A stretch of DNA of 17,384 bases from a virus. Its lineage: Duplodnaviria > Heunggongvirae > Uroviricota > Caudoviricetes. Where the stretch lies: IMG/VR virus record IMGVR_UViG_2657244971_000001; one strand, 5' to 3'. Below the pieces are notes generated by a model that ran no database searches, was not told the DNA's origin, and saw only the letters and a program-made list of their open reading frames with translations. Shown piece by piece: positions 2,734 to 16,770 of this stretch (position 1 is its first letter; each line of letters begins with the position of its first letter). The position numbers and the translations under genes were made by a program.

Positions 2734-2892
2734 TTGGTGTTCTTTCAGTTCTTCAATTCGAATATTGGTTATGTCTGCATGTGCTATCTGCGCCCATATC
2801 ATCCAGTGGTCGTAGCAGTCGTTGATGTTCTCCGCTTCGATAACTCTGTTGAATGGCTCTCCATTCCATTCTCCTGTGACTCGGAAGTGCAT
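2725..2892 (-). CDS. Small lambda early-left ORF of 55 codons between xis and ea8.5 (hypothetical protein)
   Basis: Manually translated minus-strand ORF MHFRVTGEWNGEPFNRVIEAENINDCYDHWMIWAQIAHADITNIRIEELKEHQAA (55 aa); below the length cut-off of the supplied ORF track; position corresponds to the 55-codon ORF annotated in lambda. Confidence 0.5.
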   Translation of the reverse strand: MHFRVTGEWNGEPFNRVIEAENINDCYDHWMIWAQIAHADITNIRIEELKEHQAA

Positions 2893-2980
2893 TTATCATC
2901 TCCATAAAACAAAACCCGCCGTAGCGAGTTCAGATAAAATAAATCCCCGCGAGTGCGAGGATTGTTATGTAATATTGGGT

Positions 2981-3262
2981 TTAATCATCTATATGTTTTG
3001 TACAGAGAGGGCAAGTATCGTTTCCACCGTACTCGTGATAATAATTTTGCACGGTATCAGTCATTTCTCGCACATTGCAGAATGGGGATTTGTCTTCATT
3101 AGACTTATAAACCTTCATGGAATATTTGTATGCCGACTCTATATCTATACCTTCATCTACATAAACACCTTCGTGATGTCTGCATGGAGACAAGACACCG
3201 GATCTGCACAACATTGATAACGCCCAATCTTTTTGCTCAGACTCTAACTCATTGATACTCAT
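2981..3262 (-). CDS. ea8.5: Lambda Ea8.5 protein (function unknown)
   Basis: 93-aa ORF with Cys/His-rich C-terminus; size and position after xis match lambda ea8.5. Confidence 0.85.
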   Translation of the reverse strand: MSINELESEQKDWALSMLCRSGVLSPCRHHEGVYVDEGIDIESAYKYSMKVYKSNEDKSPFCNVREMTDTVQNYYHEYGGNDTCPLCTKHIDD

Positions 3263-3453
3263 TTATAAACTCCTTGCAATGTATGTCGTTTCAGCTAAAC
3301 GGTATCAGCAATGTTTATGTAAAGAAACAGTAAGATAATACTCAACCCGATGTTTGAGTACGGTCATCATCTGACACTACAGACTCTGGCATCGCTGTGA
3401 AGACGACGCGAAATTCAGCATTTTCACAAGCGTTATCTTTTACAAAACCGATC

Positions 3454-4002
3454 TCACTCTCCTTTGATGCGAATGCCAGCGTCAGACATCATATGCAGAT
3501 ACTCACCTGCATCCTGAACCCATTGACCTCCAACCCCGTAATAGCGATGCGTAATGATGTCGATAGTTACTAACGGGTCTTGTTCGATTAACTGCCGCAG
3601 AAACTCTTCCAGGTCACCAGTGCAGTGCTTGATAACAGGAGTCTTCCCAGGATGGCGAACAACAAGAAACTGGTTTCCGTCTTCACGGACTTCGTTGCTT
3701 TCCAGTTTAGCAATACGCTTACTCCCATCCGAGATAACACCTTCGTAATACTCACGCTGCTCGTTGAGTTTTGATTTTGCTGTTTCAAGCTCAACACGCA
3801 GTTTCCCTACTGTTAGCGCAATATCCTCGTTCTCCTGGTCGCGGCGTTTGATGTATTGCTGGTTTCTTTCCCGTTCATCCAGCAGTTCCAGCACAATCGA
3901 TGGTGTTACCAATTCATGGAAAAGGTCTGCGTCAAATCCCCAGTCGTCATGCATTGCCTGCTCTGCCGCTTCACGCAGTGCCTGAGAGTTAATTTCGCTC
4001 AC
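3454..4002 (-). CDS. ea22: Lambda Ea22 protein (coiled-coil protein, function unknown)
   Basis: 182-aa ORF; size, position and sequence as recalled for lambda Ea22. Confidence 0.85.
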   Translation of the reverse strand: MSEINSQALREAAEQAMHDDWGFDADLFHELVTPSIVLELLDERERNQQYIKRRDQENEDIALTVGKLRVELETAKSKLNEQREYYEGVISDGSKRIAKLESNEVREDGNQFLVVRHPGKTPVIKHCTGDLEEFLRQLIEQDPLVTIDIITHRYYGVGGQWVQDAGEYLHMMSDAGIRIKGE

Positions 4003-4802: not shown

Positions 4803-4957
4803 ACAGCTCCCCGTTTATTATTTATCTCCTCAGCCAGCCGCTGTGCTTTCAGGGGATTTCGGATAACAGAAAGGCCGGGAAATACCCAGCCTCGCTTCGT
4901 AACGGAGTAGACGAAAGTGATCGTGCCTACGCGGATATTATCGTGAGGATGTTTCAT
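4775..4957 (-). CDS. Lambda Orf60a (hypothetical protein)
   Basis: 60 codons from the ATG at 4955-4957 (the ORF track extends 2 codons upstream); start overlaps the exo stop by 4 nt. Confidence 0.6.
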
Positions 4958-5634
4958 CGCCATTGCTCCCCAAATACAAAACCAATTTCAGCCAGTGCCT
5001 CGTCCATTTTTTCGATGAACTCCGGCACCATCTCGTCAAAACTCGCTATATACTTTTCATTCCGCTCAATCACGACATAATGCAGGCCTTCACGCTTCAT
5101 ACGCGGGTCATAGTTGGCAAAGTACCAGGCATCTTTTCGCGTCACCCACATGCTGTACTGCACCTGGGCCATGTAAGCCGACTTTATGGCCTCGAAACCA
5201 CCGAGCCGGAATTTCATGAAATCCCGGGAGGTAAACGGGCATTTCAGCTCAAGGCCATTGCCGTCACTGCATAAACCATCGGGAGAGCAGGCGGTGCGCA
5301 TACTTTCGTCGCGATAGATGATCGGGGATTCAATAACATTTACGCCGGAAGTGAACTCAAACAGGGTTCTGGCGTCGTTCTCGTACTGTTTTCCCCAGGC
5401 CAGCGCTTTAGCGTTAACTTCCGGAGCCACACCGGTGCAAACCTCAGCTAGCAGGGTGTGGAAGTAGGACATTTTCATGTCAGGCCACTTCTTTCCTGAT
5501 CGGGGCTTTGCTATCACGTTGTGAACTTCTGAAGCGGTGATGACGCCGAGCCGTAATTTGTGCCATGCATCATCCCCCTGTTCGACAGCTCTCACGTCGA
5601 TCCCGGTACGCTGCAGGATAATGTCCGGTGTCAT
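4954..5634 (-). CDS. exo: Lambda exonuclease (Red-alpha, 5'-3' dsDNA exonuclease)
   Basis: 226-aa [43 protein letters not shown]... matching lambda Exo as recalled. Confidence 0.95.
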
Positions 5635-6011
5635 GCTGCCACCTTCTGCTCAGTGGCTTTCTGTTTCAGGAATCCAAGAGCTTTCACTGCTTCGGCCTGT
5701 GTCAGTTCTGACGATGCGCGAATGTCGCGGCGAAATATCTGGGAACAGAGCGGCAATAAGTCGTCATCCCATGTTTTATCCAGGGCGATCAGCAGAGTGT
5801 TAATCTCCTGCATGGTTTCATCGTTAATGGCTTTTTTGCTGGCCCCGTGGCGTTGCAAATGATCGATGCATAGCGATTCAAACAGGTGCTGGGGCAGGCT
5901 TTTTTCCATGTCGTCTGCCAGTTCTGCCTCTTTCTCTTCACGGGCGAGCTGCTGGTAGTGACGCGCCCAGCTCTGAGCCTCAAGACGATCCTGAATGTAA
6001 TAAGCGTTCAT
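5631..6011 (-). CDS. In-frame chimeric ORF: N-terminal ~62 aa like lambda Gam (short form, [43 protein letters not shown]) fused to C-terminal ~64 aa like lambda Bet ([60 protein letters not shown]); probable deletion derivative of gam-bet
   Basis: 126-aa ORF; good Shine-Dalgarno (AGGAG 9 nt upstream of the ATG at 6009-6011); stop overlaps the exo start exactly as the bet stop does in lambda. An in-frame TAA about 19 codons upstream of the ATG excludes a long-form Gam start. Confidence 0.75.
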
Positions 6012-6326
6012 GGCTGAACTCCTGAAAATGGCTGTGAAAATATCGCCCGCGAAATGCCAGGCTGATTAGGAAAACAGGAAAGGGGGGGTTAGTGATTCAG
6101 GCCGTTACCGCGTCCGTCGAGAAAAACTTCCACGAGCAAATCACTGGTATAAGTGCGCTCGATGCCGCGATGCAGATAAAGCCGTCCGCGTAAATTAGCT
6201 GATGCAGTCCAGGTAACTGTGTTAAGTTCTCGTTAACATTAGGGGTAACATAGGGAGTATAAGATAGTGGAATGCATCATTTTATTGTTGCGAAAATGAT
6301 CGAACCAGCTGGATATCGTGTATCAT

Positions 6327-8300
6327 ATGGAACCGATGATAACTTTCATGGAATGTCTCGGTATATATATGAAAATTAGACCACAGCAGCACCTAATTAA
6401 CATCCTGACTTCAACCAAACAACATCATCCAAATTTTACTCTTTTTCTTGGTGCAGGTGCTAGTATCTCAAGTGGTGTTGATAGTGCTGGTGGGATGATA
6501 AGGCGCTGGAGAGATGCTTACACTCTAATGTATGGAGAAGATGCTCTCAAAAAACAAGTTTGGTACGATAAAGATAATGAGTATTCAGAGCTTTTTGAAG
6601 CATTATATGATCAACCAACTCAAAGAAGAGAATTTATTGAAAGTTGTATTACCGCAGCTAAACCATCTTGGGGATACGTTTATCTCACAAATCTATTGGA
6701 TAAAGGCCATTTTAATACAATTTTTACGACTAACTTCGATGATTTAGTCAATGAAGCTTGCTTTACCTTTTCTAATAATCTGAGACCAATAGTGTGTGCC
6801 CACGATTCAAGTATCAACAGCATACGTTTAACCACAGCTCGGCCAAAAATAATAAAATTACATGGTGATTTTTTATTTGACAATATCAAGAATACTATAA
6901 GGGAGCTTGAGTCACTTGAAGATAACATGAGGGCCAAATTTAGACAGTTTGCAACTGAATTTGGCATGATCGTTATTGGGTACTCGGGACACGACCGTTC
7001 AATTATGGATACTCTCAATACGTTATTGCATTCCGGTAGTTGTTTTCCTCATGGGATTTATTGGTGTATCTGTGACTCAGACACTGAAAAACTTTCTGAG
7101 CAACTTAAAAATCTGGCCCGCTTTCCTCATTTTCATCTTATTAAAATTAATGGATTTGATGAGTTCATGGCTGAATTACATTACGCATTAGGCTGTAATT
7201 TGCAGCAAGAGGTAGTAGAGCCATACTCTGCATTATCTAATAAACTAGATAGATATTTCTCTATAGCTGAAGAAGATGACGCAGATGTCCAGCATGAGAT
7301 TATTAAAAGAGATATGAATAATCTTGCTGATCATGTCAGGAGAGTGAATACAGTAAGCCAGTTTGTAAAAAAAATAAAAGTACTTCTTTCAGAGAAAGAC
7401 TCATCGTTAGATGATAATTCGATCACTAAATCTTTAGAAATAATGTTAAAGGAAACTAAATTTGCTGGTTCTCCTGAGGGGATTCATTTTTATAATACCC
7501 CCAATTATTTGATTGCAAACTCTGCATTTCGTGCTGGAGAGTATAATGAATGTGTAGAATATGCTACTAAACATCTGGCTAATGGGAAATCTCTCGAAAC
7601 AGAAGTATTAATACTTCGTTCCTATATTCATTTGGATAATGATTCTGAAATACAAAAGTCAATAGAAAGAATAACAAGTTATAACAAAATGAATGATGGT
7701 GAAGTTGGCAAGCTTGTAAATGGATTAGTGGACTTAATGGATGCTAAAAAATTCAAAATTGCGAATAGCCTTATGGACATACTTGAATCCCGAACAATAC
7801 CGTCTAAACATAAGCAGTTATTGCTTATAAATAGAGTTCTTTGCAACAAATTACAAAAGCAGCCGCTTTCAGCAAAACAGCAACAAGAGCTTGAGGAAGT
7901 GCTGAATGAAGTGATAGATAAAAACGAAGCTTGGCTTGCTCTGGGGGCTGCTATACTTTTAGAAAAATGGGACATTGCTGAAGAAGTGCTATCAGCATTA
8001 GATGAAACTGAGATAGTTACAATATTGACGCAATCAATGCCGATTTTTGACTTGATTTCTACAGAGTTTTATGAAAAGGTCAAGTTAGTAGCTATAGAGC
8101 GTGGTTATAACGTTTCATTCGAAGAAGAAACGGAGTTACCAGAGGTTGTTCCTGCTGAGGATGAGACTCAAAGTCTCAGTCCTGATGTGAGAGAAATACC
8201 TACAGATAAAAAGAAAGCCATAACTCACAAATCAGCAGACAATGATGAGGCATTTGATGGATTACGCACTGGCGAAGAAAGTATAAGCAAACCAGCTTAA
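6327..8300 (+). CDS. SIR2-family (SIR2_2-like, defence-associated sirtuin type) protein with an uncharacterised alpha-helical C-terminal half; candidate NAD+-hydrolysing anti-phage effector. Start ambiguous: GTG 6318 or ATG 6327/6336/6348/6369
   Basis: 660-codon open frame. Motifs seen: FLGAGAS (nt 6444-6464, Gly-rich dinucleotide-binding loop), TTNFDDLVNEA (Asn codon at 6732-6734), KLHGDF (His codon at 6861-6863), IGYSGHD. Asn/His spacing (43 residues) is comparable to the catalytic N/H pair of ThsA and DSR-type sirtuins. AT-rich codon usage by eye, unlike the flanking lambda genes. Confidence 0.8.
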   Translation: MEPMITFMECLGIYMKIRPQQHLINILTSTKQHHPNFTLFLGAGASISSGVDSAGGMIRRWRDAYTLMYGEDALKKQVWYDKDNEYSELFEALYDQPTQRREFIESCITAAKPSWGYVYLTNLLDKGHFNTIFTTNFDDLVNEACFTFSNNLRPIVCAHDSSINSIRLTTARPKIIKLHGDFLFDNIKNTIRELESLEDNMRAKFRQFATEFGMIVIGYSGHDRSIMDTLNTLLHSGSCFPHGIYWCICDSDTEKLSEQLKNLARFPHFHLIKINGFDEFMAELHYALGCNLQQEVVEPYSALSNKLDRYFSIAEEDDADVQHEIIKRDMNNLADHVRRVNTVSQFVKKIKVLLSEKDSSLDDNSITKSLEIMLKETKFAGSPEGIHFYNTPNYLIANSAFRAGEYNECVEYATKHLANGKSLETEVLILRSYIHLDNDSEIQKSIERITSYNKMNDGEVGKLVNGLVDLMDAKKFKIANSLMDILESRTIPSKHKQLLLINRVLCNKLQKQPLSAKQQQELEEVLNEVIDKNEAWLALGAAILLEKWDIAEEVLSALDETEIVTILTQSMPIFDLISTEFYEKVKLVAIERGYNVSFEEETELPEVVPAEDETQSLSPDVREIPTDKKKAITHKSADNDEAFDGLRTGEESISKPA

Positions 8301-8336
8301 TAATTGAACAGTGATTAACTGAGAGTGAAGGGGCTT

Positions 8337-8420
8337 ATGAAGCAGAAAAATATCAACAACCAAAGCAGAATTTCTGAAGAAAGTAAGAAAAAAATCAAGG
8401 AAATGCTTAAAAAACAATAA
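8337..8420 (+). CDS. Lysine-rich 27-codon micro-ORF (MKQKNINNQSRISEESKKKIKEMLKKQ) immediately downstream of the SIR2-family gene; speculative
   Basis: ATG at 8337 preceded by GAAGGGG Shine-Dalgarno-like sequence about 5 nt upstream; ends 3 nt before the terminator hairpin; too short for the ORF track. Confidence 0.3.
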   Translation: MKQKNINNQSRISEESKKKIKEMLKKQ

Positions 8421-8423
8421 ATT

Positions 8424-8447
8424 AAAAGACCCCGCAAGGGGTCTTTT
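8424..8447. terminator. Strong rho-independent terminator (AAAAGACCCC-GCAA-GGGGTCTTTT), potentially bidirectional
   Basis: Perfect 10-bp stem with 4-nt loop, flanked by an A-run on one side and a T-run on the other. Confidence 0.75.
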
Positions 8448-9031
8448 AATAACTATTGGCCAGTTTTTAATGAAATCATGCTTAATACAATGTGATTTTT
8501 TTCACTTGTCGTAGTGCCGATCTGATTGCCATCGTCACAGGTACTCAGTAGCGAAAAAATACGTCTACTGGGTACCAATTATCCTCAATGAGAAGTGCAG
8601 CGCGCTCCAATAAAAAGGTGATTCACCGACAGCGAACTTTGTACACTCGCTTGGTTATGGCGAGCAGGTGATGCTAACCGCCTGCCAGAATGTCACTCCA
8701 CTTCCTCAAGTATCTGAGCGACGTGAAGCCGGTGGCTTGACTTACATCGAGCAAAAATATTTCCTGGCTCACAATAGGGTGCGAGCAATCGATTCAGAAC
8801 GGTATTAGAGCTGCTAATGATCCTTCATATTGCGCCTAAATCCACAAAATTGATTTTCAATAATCAACCCGCCATAATCATCTCATCGGAGCCTGAACAA
8901 CTCCGGTGACTTCTGCGCTAAACGGGGACGTTTATGCGCACACACAATCCAAACTCACTTCTCCCGTCACAGATGCAGAAATGCACCTGCAATTCTTTGC
9001 ATCTAACGTTTGACCTCTGCGGAGGTGAAGC

Positions 9032-11054: not shown

Positions 11055-11579
11055 TTATTGTTTAACCCATAATAATTCATTGACATTGAATCCCAACTTT
11101 TGAGCGGTTCGCACATAGTCTGCTTTTACTTTATCTGGAATAGTTGGGGTCCTTGCCAGAATCCATAGGTATTCTCTGTTCGGACCACTGACAAGAGCAT
11201 ACTTATACTCATCATCCAGTTTGATTACATTATAGCCACCATAGAAGGGGCCAAAAAACGAAACCTTCAATGCTGCAGTTTTAGTATCTCCAGTAAAGTA
11301 TGCTTTACCTTCGCTCTCGCTCCATTTATTTTTCGTTGGATCGTATCCACGGTTAAGTACACGAATCCCTCCGTCGTTCCGTTTTCCATAAGTAGCGCTG
11401 ACCTGTTCCAGACCACGTTCGAACCGGTTCTCGAGGCGAGCTATTTCATACCATTTTCCGAGGTAGCGGTTGGCGTCAAAATTTGTAATCGGCTGCACAC
11501 CTTTAGGTGGTGTCGGGGCCTTACATGCTATAAGAGTGAAAGAGAGTGCAATGCCAGTCAACACAGGCCATAACTTCAT
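11055..11579 (-). CDS. Blc-like bacterial lipocalin, outer-membrane lipoprotein (moron cargo)
   Basis: 174-aa ORF with lipoprotein signal and lipobox (..FTLIAC); strong similarity to E. coli Blc as recalled (NFDANRYLGKWYEIARLENRFERGLE...KVSFFGPFYGGYNVI...YLWILARTP); AGGA Shine-Dalgarno about 8 nt upstream. Confidence 0.85.
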   Translation of the reverse strand: MKLWPVLTGIALSFTLIACKAPTPPKGVQPITNFDANRYLGKWYEIARLENRFERGLEQVSATYGKRNDGGIRVLNRGYDPTKNKWSESEGKAYFTGDTKTAALKVSFFGPFYGGYNVIKLDDEYKYALVSGPNREYLWILARTPTIPDKVKADYVRTAQKLGFNVNELLWVKQ

Positions 11580-11611
11580 AATAAATCCTGTACTTTTGAT
11601 AGTTGAGAGTA

Positions 11612-11661
11612 AGTATGAAAGATAGATGATTACGACCGATCACTTAAAGAACTTTCATACT
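11612..11661. repeat. Perfect 10-bp inverted repeat AGTATGAAAG ... CTTTCATACT separated by 30 nt, in the divergent intergenic region between the lipocalin gene and the DUF523/DUF1722 gene
   Basis: Arms at 11612-11621 and 11652-11661 are exact reverse complements. Confidence 0.6.
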
Positions 11662-11771
11662 ATATTAGGAATAGTCCATAACAGAAAAATTGTCAGTGAT
11701 GACGCCAGAAAGGCAATTTATTCCGTGCACTACACAGTTTATGTGTTAATGAATTAGTCAAGGGGGAGAAT

Positions 11772-12731
11772 ATGATAAAAAAACCTGTGATTGGAATCAG
11801 CGGTTGTTTGGCCGGTTCTGCTGTTCGTTTTGATGGTGGTCACAAAAGAGCTGACTTTTTAATGGACAAATTAGTGGAATGGGTAACATTCAGACCAGTA
11901 TGTCCGGAAATGGCTATAGGGCTGCCAGTTCCGCGTCCTGCTCTACGTCTTGTGCGCTCGACGCAAGGAAATATACGGATGTGTTTCAGCCACGACCAGA
12001 ATGAGGATGTGACAGAGAGAATGACAGAGTTTAGTCGTTCTTATATGGACAAATTAAAGGATGTATCGGGGTTTGTGGTTTGTGCTAAATCTCCCAGCTG
12101 TGGCATGGAGCGCGTGCGTGTCTATGATGAAAATGGTAATCGAGGTCGTAAAGATGGAGTGGGACTATTTACGAGCACTTTGATGGAAAAGTTTTCCTGG
12201 CTACCGGTTGAAGAGGATGGGCGATTACATGATCCAGTGCTTCGTGAGAATTTTGTTGAAAGAGTTTTTGCTTTGCATGAGCTCAATCACCTTTACAAGG
12301 AGAAATTATCAAGAAGAGAGTTATTAGCTTTTCATAGTCGTTATAAGCTTCAGTTGTTGGCGCATAGTCAGGCAGGCTATAAAGATATGGGACCATTTGT
12401 GGCTGCAATACACGAGTGGGCGGACCTTGAATCATACTTTGAGGTGTATCGTGATAAGCTGATGGCGATTCTCAGAAAACCTGCATCACGTAAAAATCAC
12501 ACGAATGTGCTGATGCATATACAGGGGTATTTTAGTAACTACTTAAGTACACGCCAGCGTAAAGAGTTGAGCGAGGTTATACTTAACTATCGTTCTGGCA
12601 CATTACCTCTTCTTGCGCCGTTGACTCTGCTGAAGCATTATCTGGGTGAGTATCCTAATGATTACTTGCTTACACAGAATTACTTCGATCCCTATCCGGA
12701 CGAACTGGCTCTAAGACTGATGGTAAATTAA
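11772..12731 (+). CDS. DUF523 (TudS-like 4Fe-4S thiouracil-desulfidase fold) / DUF1722 (YbgA-like) fusion protein
   Basis: 319-aa ORF with AGGGGGAG Shine-Dalgarno; N-terminus GISGCLAG..C..C-type cysteines typical of the DUF523 family, C-terminal half resembling YbgA-type DUF1722. Confidence 0.75.
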   Translation: MIKKPVIGISGCLAGSAVRFDGGHKRADFLMDKLVEWVTFRPVCPEMAIGLPVPRPALRLVRSTQGNIRMCFSHDQNEDVTERMTEFSRSYMDKLKDVSGFVVCAKSPSCGMERVRVYDENGNRGRKDGVGLFTSTLMEKFSWLPVEEDGRLHDPVLRENFVERVFALHELNHLYKEKLSRRELLAFHSRYKLQLLAHSQAGYKDMGPFVAAIHEWADLESYFEVYRDKLMAILRKPASRKNHTNVLMHIQGYFSNYLSTRQRKELSEVILNYRSGTLPLLAPLTLLKHYLGEYPNDYLLTQNYFDPYPDELALRLMVN

Positions 12732-13082
12732 TTGTATGCGATATCATCCAAAAGGATGAGTTCCTGCATGCAGGATATTTACAATCGTAAAAACTACACT
12801 ATGATACCCAGAGTGTCAGTTTGTATAAAAACTCTGTTTACGCTGAAGAAACAATTGAGATGCAACTTAAAGTTGGTAAACATGCCAGTCAAAATATATA
12901 ATATTATGATTCCACGCAGCTATATATAATATAACGGATTGGTTTAATAATTTGTCTTTGTGAGTTAAATACATAATTTTATACTTGTGATGCAATGAAA
13001 TTTTCCTTATTGTTGAACTGGCGAATATTGATTTTCCACCTATACTTACCTGGTGTAACCCCAATGATATCAGGTGGATAAT

Positions 13083-13814
13083 ATGCCATACATATGTTCT
13101 ATCATTTTGGTGTTGAACTCGTTTGATGTCCGAATTGGTAAAGAAGATATTTTGTTTAAAAAAGGAAGTGCTGTTCTCATTGATTACAATTTAAAAGATT
13201 TTTTTTCATCAAATATAGATCATGTAATGATCGTAGATGTTGAAGAGAAAACAGTTAATGATTTCTTTAAAAGCAACACACTCTCACCTTTTTCTGTAAG
13301 AAGGTTTTATCCGGCATACTTGATGGTGGAATGTGAAGATTTTTCATTGTTAAAGAACTTGATTGCATGCTTGAATTGTGATGGCAGAACTGTGGATTTT
13401 GTTAGAAATCAAATATCACTTGCATGTCTTGCTATCTTATCTTCAGAGAAAATAGTGCAAAGTTTTTTATTTGGATGTCTTAATAGTTTAGGAAGTAAAG
13501 TTAAGGCTATTATTCACACGGATATATCTGCGGCATGGAGACTTTGTGATATATCTTCAAGACTGTATCTGAGTGAAAGTCTGTTAAAAAGAAAATTAAA
13601 GCACGAAGGCTTATCATTTAGTAAGTTAATTCTTGAAGAGCGAATGGTGATGGCGGAAAGGTTATTAAGCTACAATTTATATTCTGTTGGAAAAGTTGCT
13701 GAGATATGCGGTTATGAAAACACGTCATATTTTGTAAGTGTTTTCAGAAGGTATTTTTGTGTTCCTCCCCATCAATATTCATCAAGATTTTTTTTAGAAA
13801 AAGACATGATGTAA
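13083..13814 (+). CDS. AraC/XylS-family transcriptional regulator (AppY/GadX/Rns-like small activator) in a strongly AT-rich islet
   Basis: C-terminal double helix-turn-helix signature (..LYLSESLLKRKLKHEGLSFSKLILEERMVMAERLL...VGKVAEICGYENTSYFVSVFRRYF); ATG 13083 preceded by AGGTGG; the ORF track starts at an upstream GTG (13074). Confidence 0.8.
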   Translation: MPYICSIILVLNSFDVRIGKEDILFKKGSAVLIDYNLKDFFSSNIDHVMIVDVEEKTVNDFFKSNTLSPFSVRRFYPAYLMVECEDFSLLKNLIACLNCDGRTVDFVRNQISLACLAILSSEKIVQSFLFGCLNSLGSKVKAIIHTDISAAWRLCDISSRLYLSESLLKRKLKHEGLSFSKLILEERMVMAERLLSYNLYSVGKVAEICGYENTSYFVSVFRRYFCVPPHQYSSRFFLEKDMM

Positions 13815-14001
13815 CGTGATGCGTTTTAATGATTTTGTAATTTTCGTATTTGATAATTGTATGATGCTTTCAGCTACGCCAGAATAATCGCGGCGTTTTT
13901 CTTTTTGAATAGATGTTCAAGCCTTACGCTAATGTAACTTCTATACCTTTCCTCTTCGTTCCGAACCGTGTACACCATCCGTTATTTGCGGAGGTGAGGC
14001 T

Positions 14002-14217
14002 ATGAAATCCATGGATAAGTTAACAACGGGCATTGCCTACGGCACCTCCGCAGGCAGTGCTGGCTACTGGTTTTTACAGCTGCTCGATAAAGTCACGCCC
14101 TCACAGTGGGCAGCAATAGGTGTGCTGGGTAGCTTGGTATTTGGCCTGCTGACGTACCTGACAAACCTTTATTTCAAGATTAAAGAAGATAAGCGCAAGG
14201 CTGCGAGAGGTGAATAA
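14002..14217 (+). CDS. essD: Class II holin / pinholin (phage 21 S21 / DLP12 EssD type) with dual-start motif MKSM
   Basis: 71-aa [63 protein letters not shown]... matching S21/EssD as recalled; two predicted TM helices. Confidence 0.9.
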
Positions 14218-14714
14218 TGCCTCCATCATTACGAAAAGCCGTTGCTGCTGCTATTGGTGGCGGAGCAATTGCTATAGCATCAGTGTTAATCACTGGCCCA
14301 AGTGGTAACGATGGTCTGGAAGGTGTCAGCTACATACCATACAAAGATATCGTTGGCGTATGGACTGTATGTCACGGGCATACAGGAAAAGACATCATTC
14401 CCGGTAAAACGTATACCGAAGCAGAATGCAAAGCCCTCCTGAATAAAGACCTTGCCACGGTAGCCAGACAAATTAACCCGTACATCAAAGTCGATATACC
14501 GGAAACAACGCGCGGCGCTCTTTACTCGTTCGTCTATAACGTGGGCGCAGGCAATTTCAGAACATCTACTCTTCTTCGCAAAATAAACCAGGGCGATATC
14601 AAGGGCGCATGTGACCAGCTACGTCGCTGGGCATACGCTGGCGGTAAGCAATGGAAAGGCCTGATGACTCGTCGTGAGATTGAGCGTGAGGTCTGTTTGT
14701 GGGGGCAACAATGA
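14217..14714 (+). CDS. rrrD: SAR endolysin (signal-anchor-release lysozyme, R21 / RrrD type)
   Basis: 165-aa ORF with Gly/Ala-rich N-terminal SAR helix ([20 protein letters not shown]) followed by a lysozyme domain; start overlaps the holin stop by 1 nt. Confidence 0.9.
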
Positions 14715-15175
14715 GCAGGGTAACCGCGATTATCTCCGCTCTGGTTATCTGCATCATCGTCTGCCTGTCATGGGCTGTTAATCATTACCGTGATAATGCA
14801 ATCGCCTACAAAGAACAGCGCGATAACAAGGCCAGTGAACTGGAGAAGGCGAACGCCACCATTACTGACATGCAGATGCGTCAGCGTGATGTTGCTGCGC
14901 TCGATGCAAAATACACGAAGGAGTTAGCTGATGCGAAAGCTGAAAATGATGTTCTGCGTGATGATGTTGCCGCTGGTCGTCGTCGGTTGCACATCAAAGC
15001 AGTCTGTCAGTCAGTGCGTGAAGCCACCACCGCCTCCGGCGTGGATAATGCAGCCTCCCCCCGACTGGCAGACACCGCTGAACGGGATTATTTCACCCTC
15101 CGGGAACGACTGGTAATGATGCAGGCCCAACTTGAAGGTGCTCAGCAATACATAACCGAGCAGTGTTTAAAGTAA
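14711..15175 (+). CDS. rzpD: Rz inner-membrane spanin (i-spanin)
   Basis: N-terminal TM helix followed by a coiled-coil-rich periplasmic domain; ATG at 14711 overlaps the endolysin stop. Confidence 0.85.
14931..15116 (+). CDS. rzoD: Rz1 outer-membrane lipoprotein spanin (o-spanin), embedded in the +1 frame of Rz
   Basis: 61-aa ORF with lipobox (VVGC) and proline-rich mature segment ([16 protein letters not shown]); the embedded Rz/Rz1 architecture is classic. Confidence 0.8.
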
Positions 15176-15312
15176 AATCTTAACTACAATATGATTCATT
15201 TTGATGATTGTTTCATAAGGAACAGTGAAGTAAGATCTAAGAGGAGTTAAATTTTATACAGTATAATCATAATATTGCAGCAAGGTGGTTATAATTGAAA
15301 GAATATTTAGAT

Positions 15313-16770
15313 ATGAATACATCTCATGTAAGAGTTGTTACTCATATGTGTGGGTTCCTGGTTTGGCTCTATAGTCTTTCAATGTTGCCACCAATGGTTG
15401 TAGCATTGTTTTATAAAGAAAAAAGCCTGTTCGTTTTCTTTATAACTTTCGTTATATTTTTTTGCATTGGTGGCGGAGCGTGGTATACAACTAAGAAATC
15501 TGGCATTCAATTACGTACCCGTGATGGGTTTATTATAATTGTAATGTTTTGGATTTTGTTTTCTGTTATTAGTGCATTCCCTTTATGGATTGACTCAGAA
15601 CTTAATTTAACGTTCATTGATGCTCTGTTTGAAGGGGTTTCTGGAATAACAACAACAGGAGCAACTGTAATTGATGATGTTAGTTCATTACCTCGGGCAT
15701 ATTTGTACTATCGGTCACAGTTAAATTTTATAGGTGGTTTAGGAGTTATTGTTCTGGCGGTTGCTGTATTGCCATTATTGGGTATTGGTGGTGCAAAGCT
15801 TTATCAGTCAGAAATGCCGGGGCCATTTAAGGATGACAAACTCACTCCCCGCCTGGCCGATACGTCACGGACACTGTGGATAACTTATTCTTTATTAGGT
15901 ATTGCTTGTATTGTCTGTTATAGACTTGCAGGAATGCCTTTGTTTGATGCTATTTGTCACGGGATTTCCACAGTTTCGCTTGGTGGTTTCTCAACTCATA
16001 GCGAGAGTATCGGATATTTTAATAACTATTTGGTTGAGCTGGTGGCTGGTTCTTTTTCCCTGCTATCGGCTTTCAACTTCACTCTTTGGTATATTGTTAT
16101 TAGCAGGAAAACGATAAAACCTTTAATCAGAGATATTGAACTTCGTTTCTTTCTGTTAATAGCCTTAGGGGTGATCATTGTTACCTCTTTCCAGGTCTGG
16201 CATATAGGTATGTATGACTTGCATGGAAGTTTTATTCATTCGTTTTTTCTTGCCAGTTCCATGCTCACTGATAATGGTTTAGCTACGCAGGATTATGCAA
16301 GTTGGCCCACGCACACGATAGTGTTTTTGCTGTTGTCAAGTTTCTTTGGGGGATGTATAGGTTCAACTTGTGGTGGAATTAAGTCACTTCGATTTCTTAT
16401 ACTTTTCAAACAAAGCAAACACGAGATAAATCAGCTTTCTCATCCCAGAGCGTTGTTGAGTGTAAATGTAGGAGGGAAGATAGTTACAGATCGTGTAATG
16501 AGGTCTGTATGGAGTTTCTTTTTTCTTTATACTCTCTTCACGGTGTTTTTTATACTGGTGTTAAATGGTATGGGATATGATTTTCTTACATCATTTGCAA
16601 CAGTGGCTGCATGTATTAATAATATGGGATTAGGTTTTGGGGCTACTGCATCGTCATTCGGAGTGCTTAATGACATTGCAAAATGTTTAATGTGCATAGC
16701 TATGATTCTTGGTCGCCTTGAAATTTATCCTGTTATTATATTGTTTTCAGGTTTTTTTTGGCGCTCCTAA
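15313..16770 (+). CDS. trkG: TrkH/TrkG-family potassium uptake membrane protein (Rac prophage TrkG-like moron)
   Basis: 485 codons from ATG 15313 (the ORF track starts at an upstream TTG); polytopic membrane protein matching E. coli TrkG as recalled; AT-rich; sits directly after Rz/Rz1, as in Rac. Confidence 0.9.
   Translation: MNTSHVRVVTHMCGFLVWLYSLSMLPPMVVALFYKEKSLFVFFITFVIFFCIGGGAWYTTKKSGIQLRTRDGFIIIVMFWILFSVISAFPLWIDSELNLTFIDALFEGVSGITTTGATVIDDVSSLPRAYLYYRSQLNFIGGLGVIVLAVAVLPLLGIGGAKLYQSEMPGPFKDDKLTPRLADTSRTLWITYSLLGIACIVCYRLAGMPLFDAICHGISTVSLGGFSTHSESIGYFNNYLVELVAGSFSLLSAFNFTLWYIVISRKTIKPLIRDIELRFFLLIALGVIIVTSFQVWHIGMYDLHGSFIHSFFLASSMLTDNGLATQDYASWPTHTIVFLLLSSFFGGCIGSTCGGIKSLRFLILFKQSKHEINQLSHPRALLSVNVGGKIVTDRVMRSVWSFFFLYTLFTVFFILVLNGMGYDFLTSFATVAACINNMGLGFGATASSFGVLNDIAKCLMCIAMILGRLEIYPVIILFSGFFWRS

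Follow-up and report, generated by a model that had tools for sequence, protein, structure and literature searches.

The 17,384-nt stretch of virus record IMGVR_UViG_2657244971_000001 (IMG/VR; hereafter, the window) comes from a lambdoid prophage at the att-lambda/ybhC site in the Escherichia coli draft assembly GCA_001484405.1. Directly 5' of an intact exo gene, it carries an open reading frame (ORF) of 126 codons whose product joins residues 1 to 62 of the short form of lambda Gam to residues 198 to 261 of lambda Bet. An initial annotation, made from the letters of the sequence alone, had described this ORF as beginning like short-form Gam up to about residue 62, continuing as the last ~64 residues of Bet to a stop codon that overlaps the exo start, and reflecting an in-frame deletion of ~0.7 kb. 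Alignment to intact phages and a sequence search of the Protein Data Bank (PDB) bore out each of these points. The features are placed in Table 1.

The two halves of the chimera were recognized separately in sequence searches. Using Pfam, we found that the Gam family (PF06064) matches residues 1 to 64 only, covering profile positions 1 to 64 of 98 (E = 1.7e-38). The chimera therefore does not hold the whole ~98-residue domain, since gam codons 63 to 98 are deleted, and what is present is the N-terminal Gam helix region with its native start and Shine-Dalgarno sequence (AGGAG-N7-ATG). The annealing domain of the RecT/Bet family (PF03837) had no match in the chimera, from which Bet codons 1 to 197 are absent. 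In the PDB search, the Gam chains 2uuz and 5mbv matched residues 1 to 63 (E = 1.3e-35), while chains of the Bet C-terminal domain (CTD) matched residues 61 to 126 (8tfu; E = 8.2e-36) and 62 to 125 (6m9k_D; E = 2.2e-35). The gene has the position of a Bet-type gene, with a translational overlap between its stop codon and the exo start that reads GCAGCATGACACCGG.

Table 1. Positions of the fusion ORF and neighboring features in the window
Feature	Coordinates	Strand	Basis
gam'-'bet chimeric ORF, 126 codons, stop codon included in coordinates	5631..6011	-	ORF list and translation, ATG start
Gam-derived part: codons 1-62 of the short form (GamS); predicted helices 3-38, 41-54	5826..6011	-	PF06064, PDB 2uuz/5mbv, alignment to intact gam; low-confidence AlphaFold2 (AF2) model for helices
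Bet-derived part: codons 198-261 + stop, the ordered C-terminal three-helix bundle binding lambda Exo and SSB	5631..5825	-	PDB 6m9k_D/8tfu
Deletion junction, 3-nt microhomology TTA: gam GCCATTA|CCCGTG, bet CCGGTTA|ACGATG	5825..5827	-	Overlap of BLAST pieces, three-way sequence display
gamS native Shine-Dalgarno AGGAG, 7 nt 5' of ATG	6019..6023	-	Read from sequence; same in intact phages
exo (lambda exonuclease), intact, 226 aa; start overlaps chimera stop (ATGA, 5631-5634)	4954..5634	-	Pfam YqaJ, E = 3.3e-29
Only native upstream DNA left: 3' remnant of kil-like gene + gam leader	6012..6215	-	Homology to intact phages/prophages ends at 6215
Foreign low-GC (0.36) block, ~2.6 kb	6216..8849	+	Synteny with MSI001 breaks at 6215, resumes at 8850

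It is hardly credible that the ORF is a full-length homolog of one known protein, the finding that would have contradicted the initial annotation, or a product of misassembly. The names that GenBank submitters have given to such sequences ("recombinase RecT" and "recT domain protein") speak for a single protein, and the exact chimera is deposited on one contig only, as "recombinase RecT" (KUH20254.1). Against this stand the two-piece alignment and the split PDB matches. The halves match two different proteins at 95 to 98% identity with a sharp boundary between them, and nothing covers the chimera end to end except copies of the same fusion. As for an assembly artifact, the identical junction is present in seven closed, long-read E. 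coli genomes, and one fusion allele (P0122) occurs on 99 contigs.

Megablast of window positions 4900 to 6400 against 50,697 phage records returned many lambdoid phages, which always matched in two pieces spanning ~2,021 bp in the record versus 1,316 bp in the window. Escherichia phage PhiR68_2 (locus L001), in which gam (1703-1999), bet (2005-2790), and exo (2787-3467) are annotated, served as the intact reference. By BLAST, a left collinear piece covers the upstream region and gam codons 1 to 62 (96.4% identity) and stops one base into gam codon 63. A right one, which spans exo and the part of bet from codon 198 on (99.8% identity), has its first base at position 2 of bet codon 197, and the two share 3 nt (TTA). 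In total, 707 bp of PhiR68_2 are missing from the window, and the same 707-bp gap with TTA microhomology was seen relative to Perceval and strain MSI001. At the junction, gam reads ..AAAAAAGCCATTA|CCCGTG.., bet reads ..CTCCGGTTA|ACGATG.., and the window reads ..AAAAAAGCCATTAACGATG.. The fusion is in frame because the length of the deletion (707 mod 3 = 2) offsets the +2 frame shift between gam and bet. The initial annotation had proposed a pairwise alignment to locate the junction and any microhomology; carried out here, it shows a microhomology-mediated deletion.

In the cryo-electron microscopy structure of RecBCD with Gam, the long N-terminal Gam helix enters the single-stranded DNA (ssDNA) channel of RecB, and the active inhibitor is a dimer whose body mimics duplex DNA (PMC5218532). 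The loss of the Gam C-terminal region, noted initially, corresponds to residues 63 to 98, the last third of the protein. Because these residues are missing, the truncated Gam probably would not assemble into the RecBCD-blocking dimer that imitates DNA, and RecBCD inhibition by the chimera would probably be lost. For Bet, Caldwell et al. crystallized residues 183 to 261 with lambda Exo, and this CTD-only construct forms a stable complex with Exo in vitro (PMC6393309). Residues 183 to 194 are a disordered linker, Thr195 is the first ordered residue, and ~67 residues fold into a three-helix bundle, of which helices 2 and 3 grip Exo helix E via L223, I227, F249, and L250, together with Q226, R229, Q252, K253, and E256; the CTD is also required for SSB binding (PMC6393309).

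The Bet region retained in the chimera, which had been singled out from the start as implicated in partner contacts, is this Exo- and SSB-contact domain. All nine of the Exo-interface residues listed above are conserved. Their partners in Exo (Q83, D87, T90, L91, F94, T95, L184, and Y186) are all present in the window Exo, which does not differ at any residue from the Exo of the isolated phage PhiR68_2. The window Exo also has D109, D119, E129, and K131, which we take to be catalytic. Because the Bet annealing domain is gone, Red recombination would be dead, in line with the initial description of a Red system broken by the absence of Bet beside an intact Exo. To judge from the protein sequence, Bet annealing activity would certainly be lost, and binding of Exo and of the SSB tail by the C-terminal bundle is probably the one activity that the chimera retains, if it is made. 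An AF2 model of the chimera, computed on a clean two-part alignment, was of low confidence (mean predicted local distance difference test score of 57) and was used for secondary structure only. It predicts helices at residues 3 to 38, 41 to 54, 64 to 76, 81 to 99, and 105 to 125, with the junction within the loop at residues 55 to 63.

Recurrent deletion end points in gam and bet

In lambdoid prophages of E. coli, deletions repeatedly end at both breakpoints of the chimera, running in one direction only from each. We found other fusion ORFs by protein search with the chimera, in which fusions that keep more of Bet or more of Gam score equally, so that the search has no position bias. About 21 distinct proteins carried non-Bet sequence in front of the Bet C terminus. 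The Bet portion starts at V197/N198 in eight of these proteins, at Q188/P189 in three, and at L208 in three; a start within codons 1 to 180 was seen in five only. Likewise, seven Gam N-terminal fusions break after ..KKAI(62) at the protein level. The bet site (retained sequence, ..TAACGATG) has at least nine DNA-verified partners, namely, gam codon 62 in the window, the gamL leader/kil end in NC19 and others, lambda ea10, the O gene in antisense orientation, the region upstream of Q, and four more. The gam site (retained sequence, ..GCCATTA) has at least five: bet codon 198 in the window, DUF1382, DUF1317/orf60a, a site near ea8.5, and a site near xis/int. For a sixth, bet codon 114 (P0002), the evidence is at the protein level only.

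At both sites, the events are plain deletions that keep collinearity, and the prophages in which they occur are decayed and lie at att-lambda or argU. Crossovers always fall within the bet TTAA or the gam TTA, and microhomology of TT, TA, TTA, or TAA was present at 14 of the 14 DNA-verified junctions. The direction of deletion is fixed, proceeding from the gam site toward bet and exo and from the bet site toward gam and kil. In exact-pattern scans of IMG/VR, 10 contigs had the outer flanks that the deletions retain, and no contig had the reciprocal inner ones. When inverted, one site resembles the other: the gam top strand (CATTACCCG) and the bet bottom strand (CGTTAACCG) agree at seven of nine positions.

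Two sibling scars illustrate the range of products. An independent in-frame fusion in strain PI12 (NZ_CP074005.1; L005 3940-4281) joins Gam residues 1 to 41 to Bet residues 189 to 261 at a CAGC microhomology. Its 113-aa product (WP_257160974.1) is annotated as a Gam family protein and has the same Gam haplotype (L22, S38) as the window. NC19 (L004 3855-4200) and no fewer than 13 further complete genomes carry a direct junction between the kil/gamL leader and bet (..CCCCCCTT|AACGATG), at the same bet end point as in the window; what is left is a 60-codon ORF (Bet 202 to 261) that overlaps an intact exo.

Insertion sequence (IS) ends lie close to both sites in other genomes. An IS629-like end (TGAACCGCCCCGGGTTTCC..) is found in gam after ..ATTACCC, 3 nt from the hot spot, in one genome (L018 3183-3282), and two other proteins point to additional IS-like insertions at a distance of 2 to 3 nt from the hot spot. 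An end of an IS21-family element (ISEc62-like; ..GGCGCTGACA) abuts bet at GTTAACGATG (..|GTTAACG), 2 to 3 nt from the hot spot (L019 1-80). The flank of a second ISEc62-like copy, in a different genome, is similar (TTATTGATG) and may reflect a target preference.

Two candidate causes of the hot spots found no support. Although the gam site lies inside an inverted repeat (CACGGG-N19-CCCGTG), as hairpin-stalled replication would suppose, predicted ssDNA folds of both sites on both strands were no more stable than those of shuffled sequences (z = -0.6 to +0.2). A blunt, HpaI-type cut at the GTTAAC palindrome in bet is rejected: all junctions keep the T before AACG, crossovers fall anywhere within TTAA, and the gam site is neither GTTAAC nor TTAA.

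Deletion is not the only change seen in these genes. Frameshift alleles of gam in a run of six A residues (codons 59 to 60; window positions ~5832-5837) are common (P0020, P0061, P0074, P0081, and P0091), with P0020 alone standing for 310 sequences, and their 113-aa products read into the start region of bet. Frameshifting in this run is a second frequent route of Gam inactivation in resident prophages. In Salmonella enterica, two proteins (P0102 and P0097) carry a Bet-like CTD (..AERQPERDITPVSDETMREIN..) on a different RecT-family N-terminal domain. Their boundary falls in the linker at about Bet residues 184 to 188, a natural module exchange where deletion breakpoints cluster.

Distribution of the junction and state of the prophage

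A survey of related prophages for the same junction, proposed with the initial annotation, recovered it in 7 of 5,426 complete E. coli genomes, in a different prophage (DLP12 type, at argU). All seven strains came from pigs (P13-6, ETEC4073, ETEC4090, ETEC1706, ETEC1716, HNSQ2209, and UMNF18). The junction was found in none of the 50,697 phage records. Among 5.8 billion proteins, the fusion forms one cluster of 12 sequences, in which P0122 is the commonest allele. In P13-6 (L003, ~11940), the fusion lies in a DLP12-type prophage at the argU tRNA gene and starts with TTG, not ATG, and PGAP annotates it as two pseudogenes ("Gam, incomplete" and "Bet, incomplete"). Other DLP12-type copies (L021, L030, and L053) have an ATG start. 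We found nothing in the literature that specifically describes a Gam-Bet fusion.

The window allele and the DLP12-type allele differ at 27 of 1,316 positions. Their Gam haplotypes are H18/L22/S38 and Y18/I22/G38, respectively, and the window exo haplotype differs by 2 nt in 928 nt from PhiR68_2 and by 20 nt from the common type. Between the two haplotypes, the differences nearest the junction are 74 nt to its left and 196 nt to its right. Within the ORF, the window differs from L003 and L021 by 4 to 5 nt, all non-synonymous or in the start codon and too few for a selection test; there is no sign of purifying selection on the fusion ORF.

The gene order in the window is ybhC (1-1284), a lambda-type integrase, an excisionase, early-left genes, exo, the chimera, a divergent 660-aa gene, the nin region, Q, cargo genes, lysis genes, and trkG. 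The closest complete genome is that of strain MSI001, which has the same prophage at the same site with gam, bet, exo, the kil-like gene, repressor, cro, ydaT, O, and P intact. In the window, the low-GC block stands in place of ~6.2 kb of MSI001 that holds the remainder of the kil-like gene, repressor, cro, ydaT, O, P, and ren. The block encodes a 660-aa protein (6318-8300, + strand) with a Pfam SIR2_2 domain and a weak TPR-like match. With PADLOC, this protein strongly matched SIR2 domains of defense proteins, among them pAgo-associated and PDC-S65 candidates (best E value, 1.6e-62), and it is likely an antiphage defense gene parked in the prophage remnant.

The prophage is a defective remnant, with its repressor, replication genes, and native promoter lost. 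Native DNA upstream of the chimera amounts to just 204 bp, so the leftward operon has neither its promoter nor its regulators. A promoter scan of the upstream region returned consensus-level matches only, four of them against 2.5 expected by chance. The initial annotation had argued that a strong Shine-Dalgarno sequence would allow the chimera to be expressed. The Shine-Dalgarno sequence is indeed kept, but the native promoter has been replaced by the foreign block, so the former alone says little about expression.

Positions 2963 to 3986 have no counterpart in MSI001 and hold an Ead/Ea22-like ORF (3454-4002, - strand), a typical early-left mosaic swap. Nonphage cargo surrounds the late and lysis region (11055-16770), including a blc-like lipocalin (11055-11579, - strand), a YbgA/DUF1722 protein (11772-12731), an AraC-type helix-turn-helix protein (13074-13814), and trkG (15295-16770), which directly follows an Rz-like gene. 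In a close relative of this att-lambda-site prophage, from E. coli 2018-18.25PC isolated from a pig in Viet Nam, the counterpart of the AraC-type regulator gene is interrupted by the mcr-1 transposon Tn6330 (ISApl1-mcr-1-pap2-ISApl1; L069 20387-25039). We considered this transposon as a cause of the breakpoints and rejected it because it is inserted in a different gene.

Probable origin and possible function of the fusion

We consider it quite probable that the chimeric ORF is an in-frame deletion scar, that is, a gam'-'bet fusion pseudogene in a defective prophage. A single illegitimate recombination event would have joined the TTA of gam codons 62 to 63 to the TTA of bet codons 197 to 198, removing 707 bp and restoring the reading frame by chance. 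The att-lambda/ybhC prophage would since then have lost its repressor, replication genes, and native promoter. Support for a scar comes from the anatomy of the junction, the defective state of the prophage, the rarity of the fusion, the pseudogene calls by PGAP, the TTG start in P13-6, the few differences between alleles (all non-synonymous or in the start codon), and the sibling scars. As to what fixes the end points, our leading guess, held with low confidence, is a mobile-element or end-joining process, such as IS excision with IEE-type microhomology joining. IEE-dependent IS excision produces deletions of a few nucleotides to >40 kb beside an IS, and IEE, which has a microhomology end-joining activity, is found in >30% of E. 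coli assemblies (PMC9943667). Loss of ISApl1 leaves microhomology scars of 2 to 4 bp (bioRxiv 10.1101/2023.06.07.543989).

Several observations weigh against this account. The frame, the Shine-Dalgarno sequence, the exo overlap, and the Exo/SSB-binding bundle are all preserved and Exo is intact, which leaves the product a small chance of residual Exo/SSB-binding activity. The junction also occurs on two haplotypes in two prophages, one of the att-lambda type and one of the DLP12 type in pig strains, which could reflect persistence or transfer instead of simple decay, and the substitution counts are too small for a real test of selection. As for an IS, neither the protein matches nor DNA scans targeted at the two sites in IMG/VR, JGI metagenomes, and GTDB genomes revealed one exactly at either fixed end; the nearest were the IS629-like end 3 nt off in gam and the IS21-family end 2 to 3 nt off in bet.

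The preserved features raise the alternative that the chimera is a functional small protein, in which the Bet bundle would dock on Exo trimers and the SSB C-terminal tail, with the N-terminal Gam helices displayed on it. Expressed from a resident prophage, such a protein might serve as a decoy, separating Exo from Bet when lambdoid phages superinfect, or it might modulate RecBCD or SSB. The conservation of the nine interface residues and of their Exo partners (as listed in PMC6393309) favors this idea, as does the stable complex that Bet 183-261 alone forms with Exo in vitro (PMC6393309). It would also fit the retention of the frame, Shine-Dalgarno sequence, and ATGA overlap, and the existence of three independent in-frame fusions that keep the entire CTD (the window, PI12, and P0045). 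Moreover, because the junction falls in predicted loops, whole helices would be kept. Yet we regard a functional protein as improbable, given that the native promoter is lost in the window, the fusion is very rare, one lineage has a TTG start, PGAP calls pseudogenes, and Gam works as a dimer whose C-terminal third is missing here. In addition, the bet site has many sibling junctions that break the frame or attach antisense junk (NC19, P0021, P0028, and P0031), so selection for a protein does not explain the common bet end point. Our literature search found no data on CTD-only Bet acting in trans.

How often the scar arose is a separate question. The identical junction may have formed more than once, both end points being hot spots that share TTA, so that the window copy would be unrelated to the DLP12 copy of the pig strains; we treat this as a serious possibility while remaining somewhat doubtful. 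The carriers are not of one prophage type, sit at different integration sites, and have different haplotypes of Gam and of exo. No difference comes closer to the junction than 74 nt on the left and 196 nt on the right, both end points are used by many other deletions, and the 707-bp segment contains only seven TTA triplets. But a gene-conversion patch of ≤270 bp between coresident prophages would give the same pattern, and the sequence to the right of the junction says little about the number of origins, since hardly any allele varies in the Bet CTD. A broader version of repeated origin, which strikes us as rather unlikely, invokes a DNA process with a fixed direction and a sequence preference, whose targets would be CATTA^CCCG in gam and CGTTA^ACCG on the opposite strand in bet. 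It would repeatedly truncate the Gam/Red module of resident lambdoid prophages and thus create the identical fusion independently in different prophages, with IS excision and microhomology end joining from a Gam62-IS-Bet198 arrangement, or polymerase template switching, as candidate mechanisms. Were there a Gam62-IS-Bet198 intermediate, it would account for the two fixed ends and for the directionality, and the window junction would be its "clean excision" product. Its attraction as an ancestor is the lack of reciprocal products in IMG/VR (0 inner versus 10 outer flanks). None was found in our scans, and as the single ancestor of all variants it was rejected, since P0002 (Gam62-Bet114) needs bet sequence that such an ancestor lacks. 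Alternatively, a polymerase stalled at a ..TTA-3' end could have switched templates, which would fit the directionality as well.

Read as a scar, the chimera is an ordinary by-product of prophage decay, not a novel kind of object, and databases already list it with names that mislead; the label "recombinase RecT" should give way to gam'-'bet fusion pseudogene. A natural Bet CTD-only protein beside an intact Exo is nevertheless a reagent-like variant for studies of Exo-Bet-SSB contacts. What goes beyond routine is only the recurrent, directional breakpoints, which merit a population-scale survey: the deletions that dismantle gam-bet-exo in E. coli prophages are nonrandom, and a large share of the independent events falls on two nucleotide positions, at each in one direction. 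If a defined mechanism (IS excision/IEE or template switching) is responsible, the two sites would offer a convenient natural readout of it and would also reveal the route by which recombination and anti-RecBCD functions disappear from resident prophages.

Comparison with known systems

Relative to lambda GamS (PF06064; 2UUZ and 5MBV), residues 1 to 62 of the chimera are ~95% identical, with the same start codon and ribosome-binding site, and the long N-terminal helix that inserts into the ssDNA channel of RecB (PMC5218532) is part of this stretch. In contrast to GamS, the chimera is without residues 63 to 98, the last third of the domain. Residues 63 to 126 of the chimera correspond to residues 198 to 261 of lambda Red-beta (Bet; 6M9K and 8TFU), which make up 64 of the ~67 ordered residues of the bundle, and the gene adjoins and overlaps exo from upstream, as in lambda. 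Unlike Bet, the chimera has neither the annealing domain (1 to 177) nor the flexible linker (183 to 194), and it would support neither annealing nor Red recombination.

The deletions at the two sites share with the IS-loss and IEE-type deletions of IS629 and ISApl1 a fixed end with a variable far end, microhomology of 2 to 4 nt, and no IS left behind, and IS ends lie within 2 to 3 nt of both sites in other genomes. They differ in that no sequence examined had an IS at the exact fixed ends. Like other cryptic lambdoid prophage remnants of the DLP12 type or at the att-lambda site, the chimera is a deletion-derived fragment in an element that has lost its immunity and replication genes, and PGAP calls such fragments "incomplete" Gam and "incomplete" Bet. 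It differs from these remnants in that its fragments are fused in frame with intact translation signals and in that its end points are recurrent breakpoints, a feature of which we found no description for such remnants.

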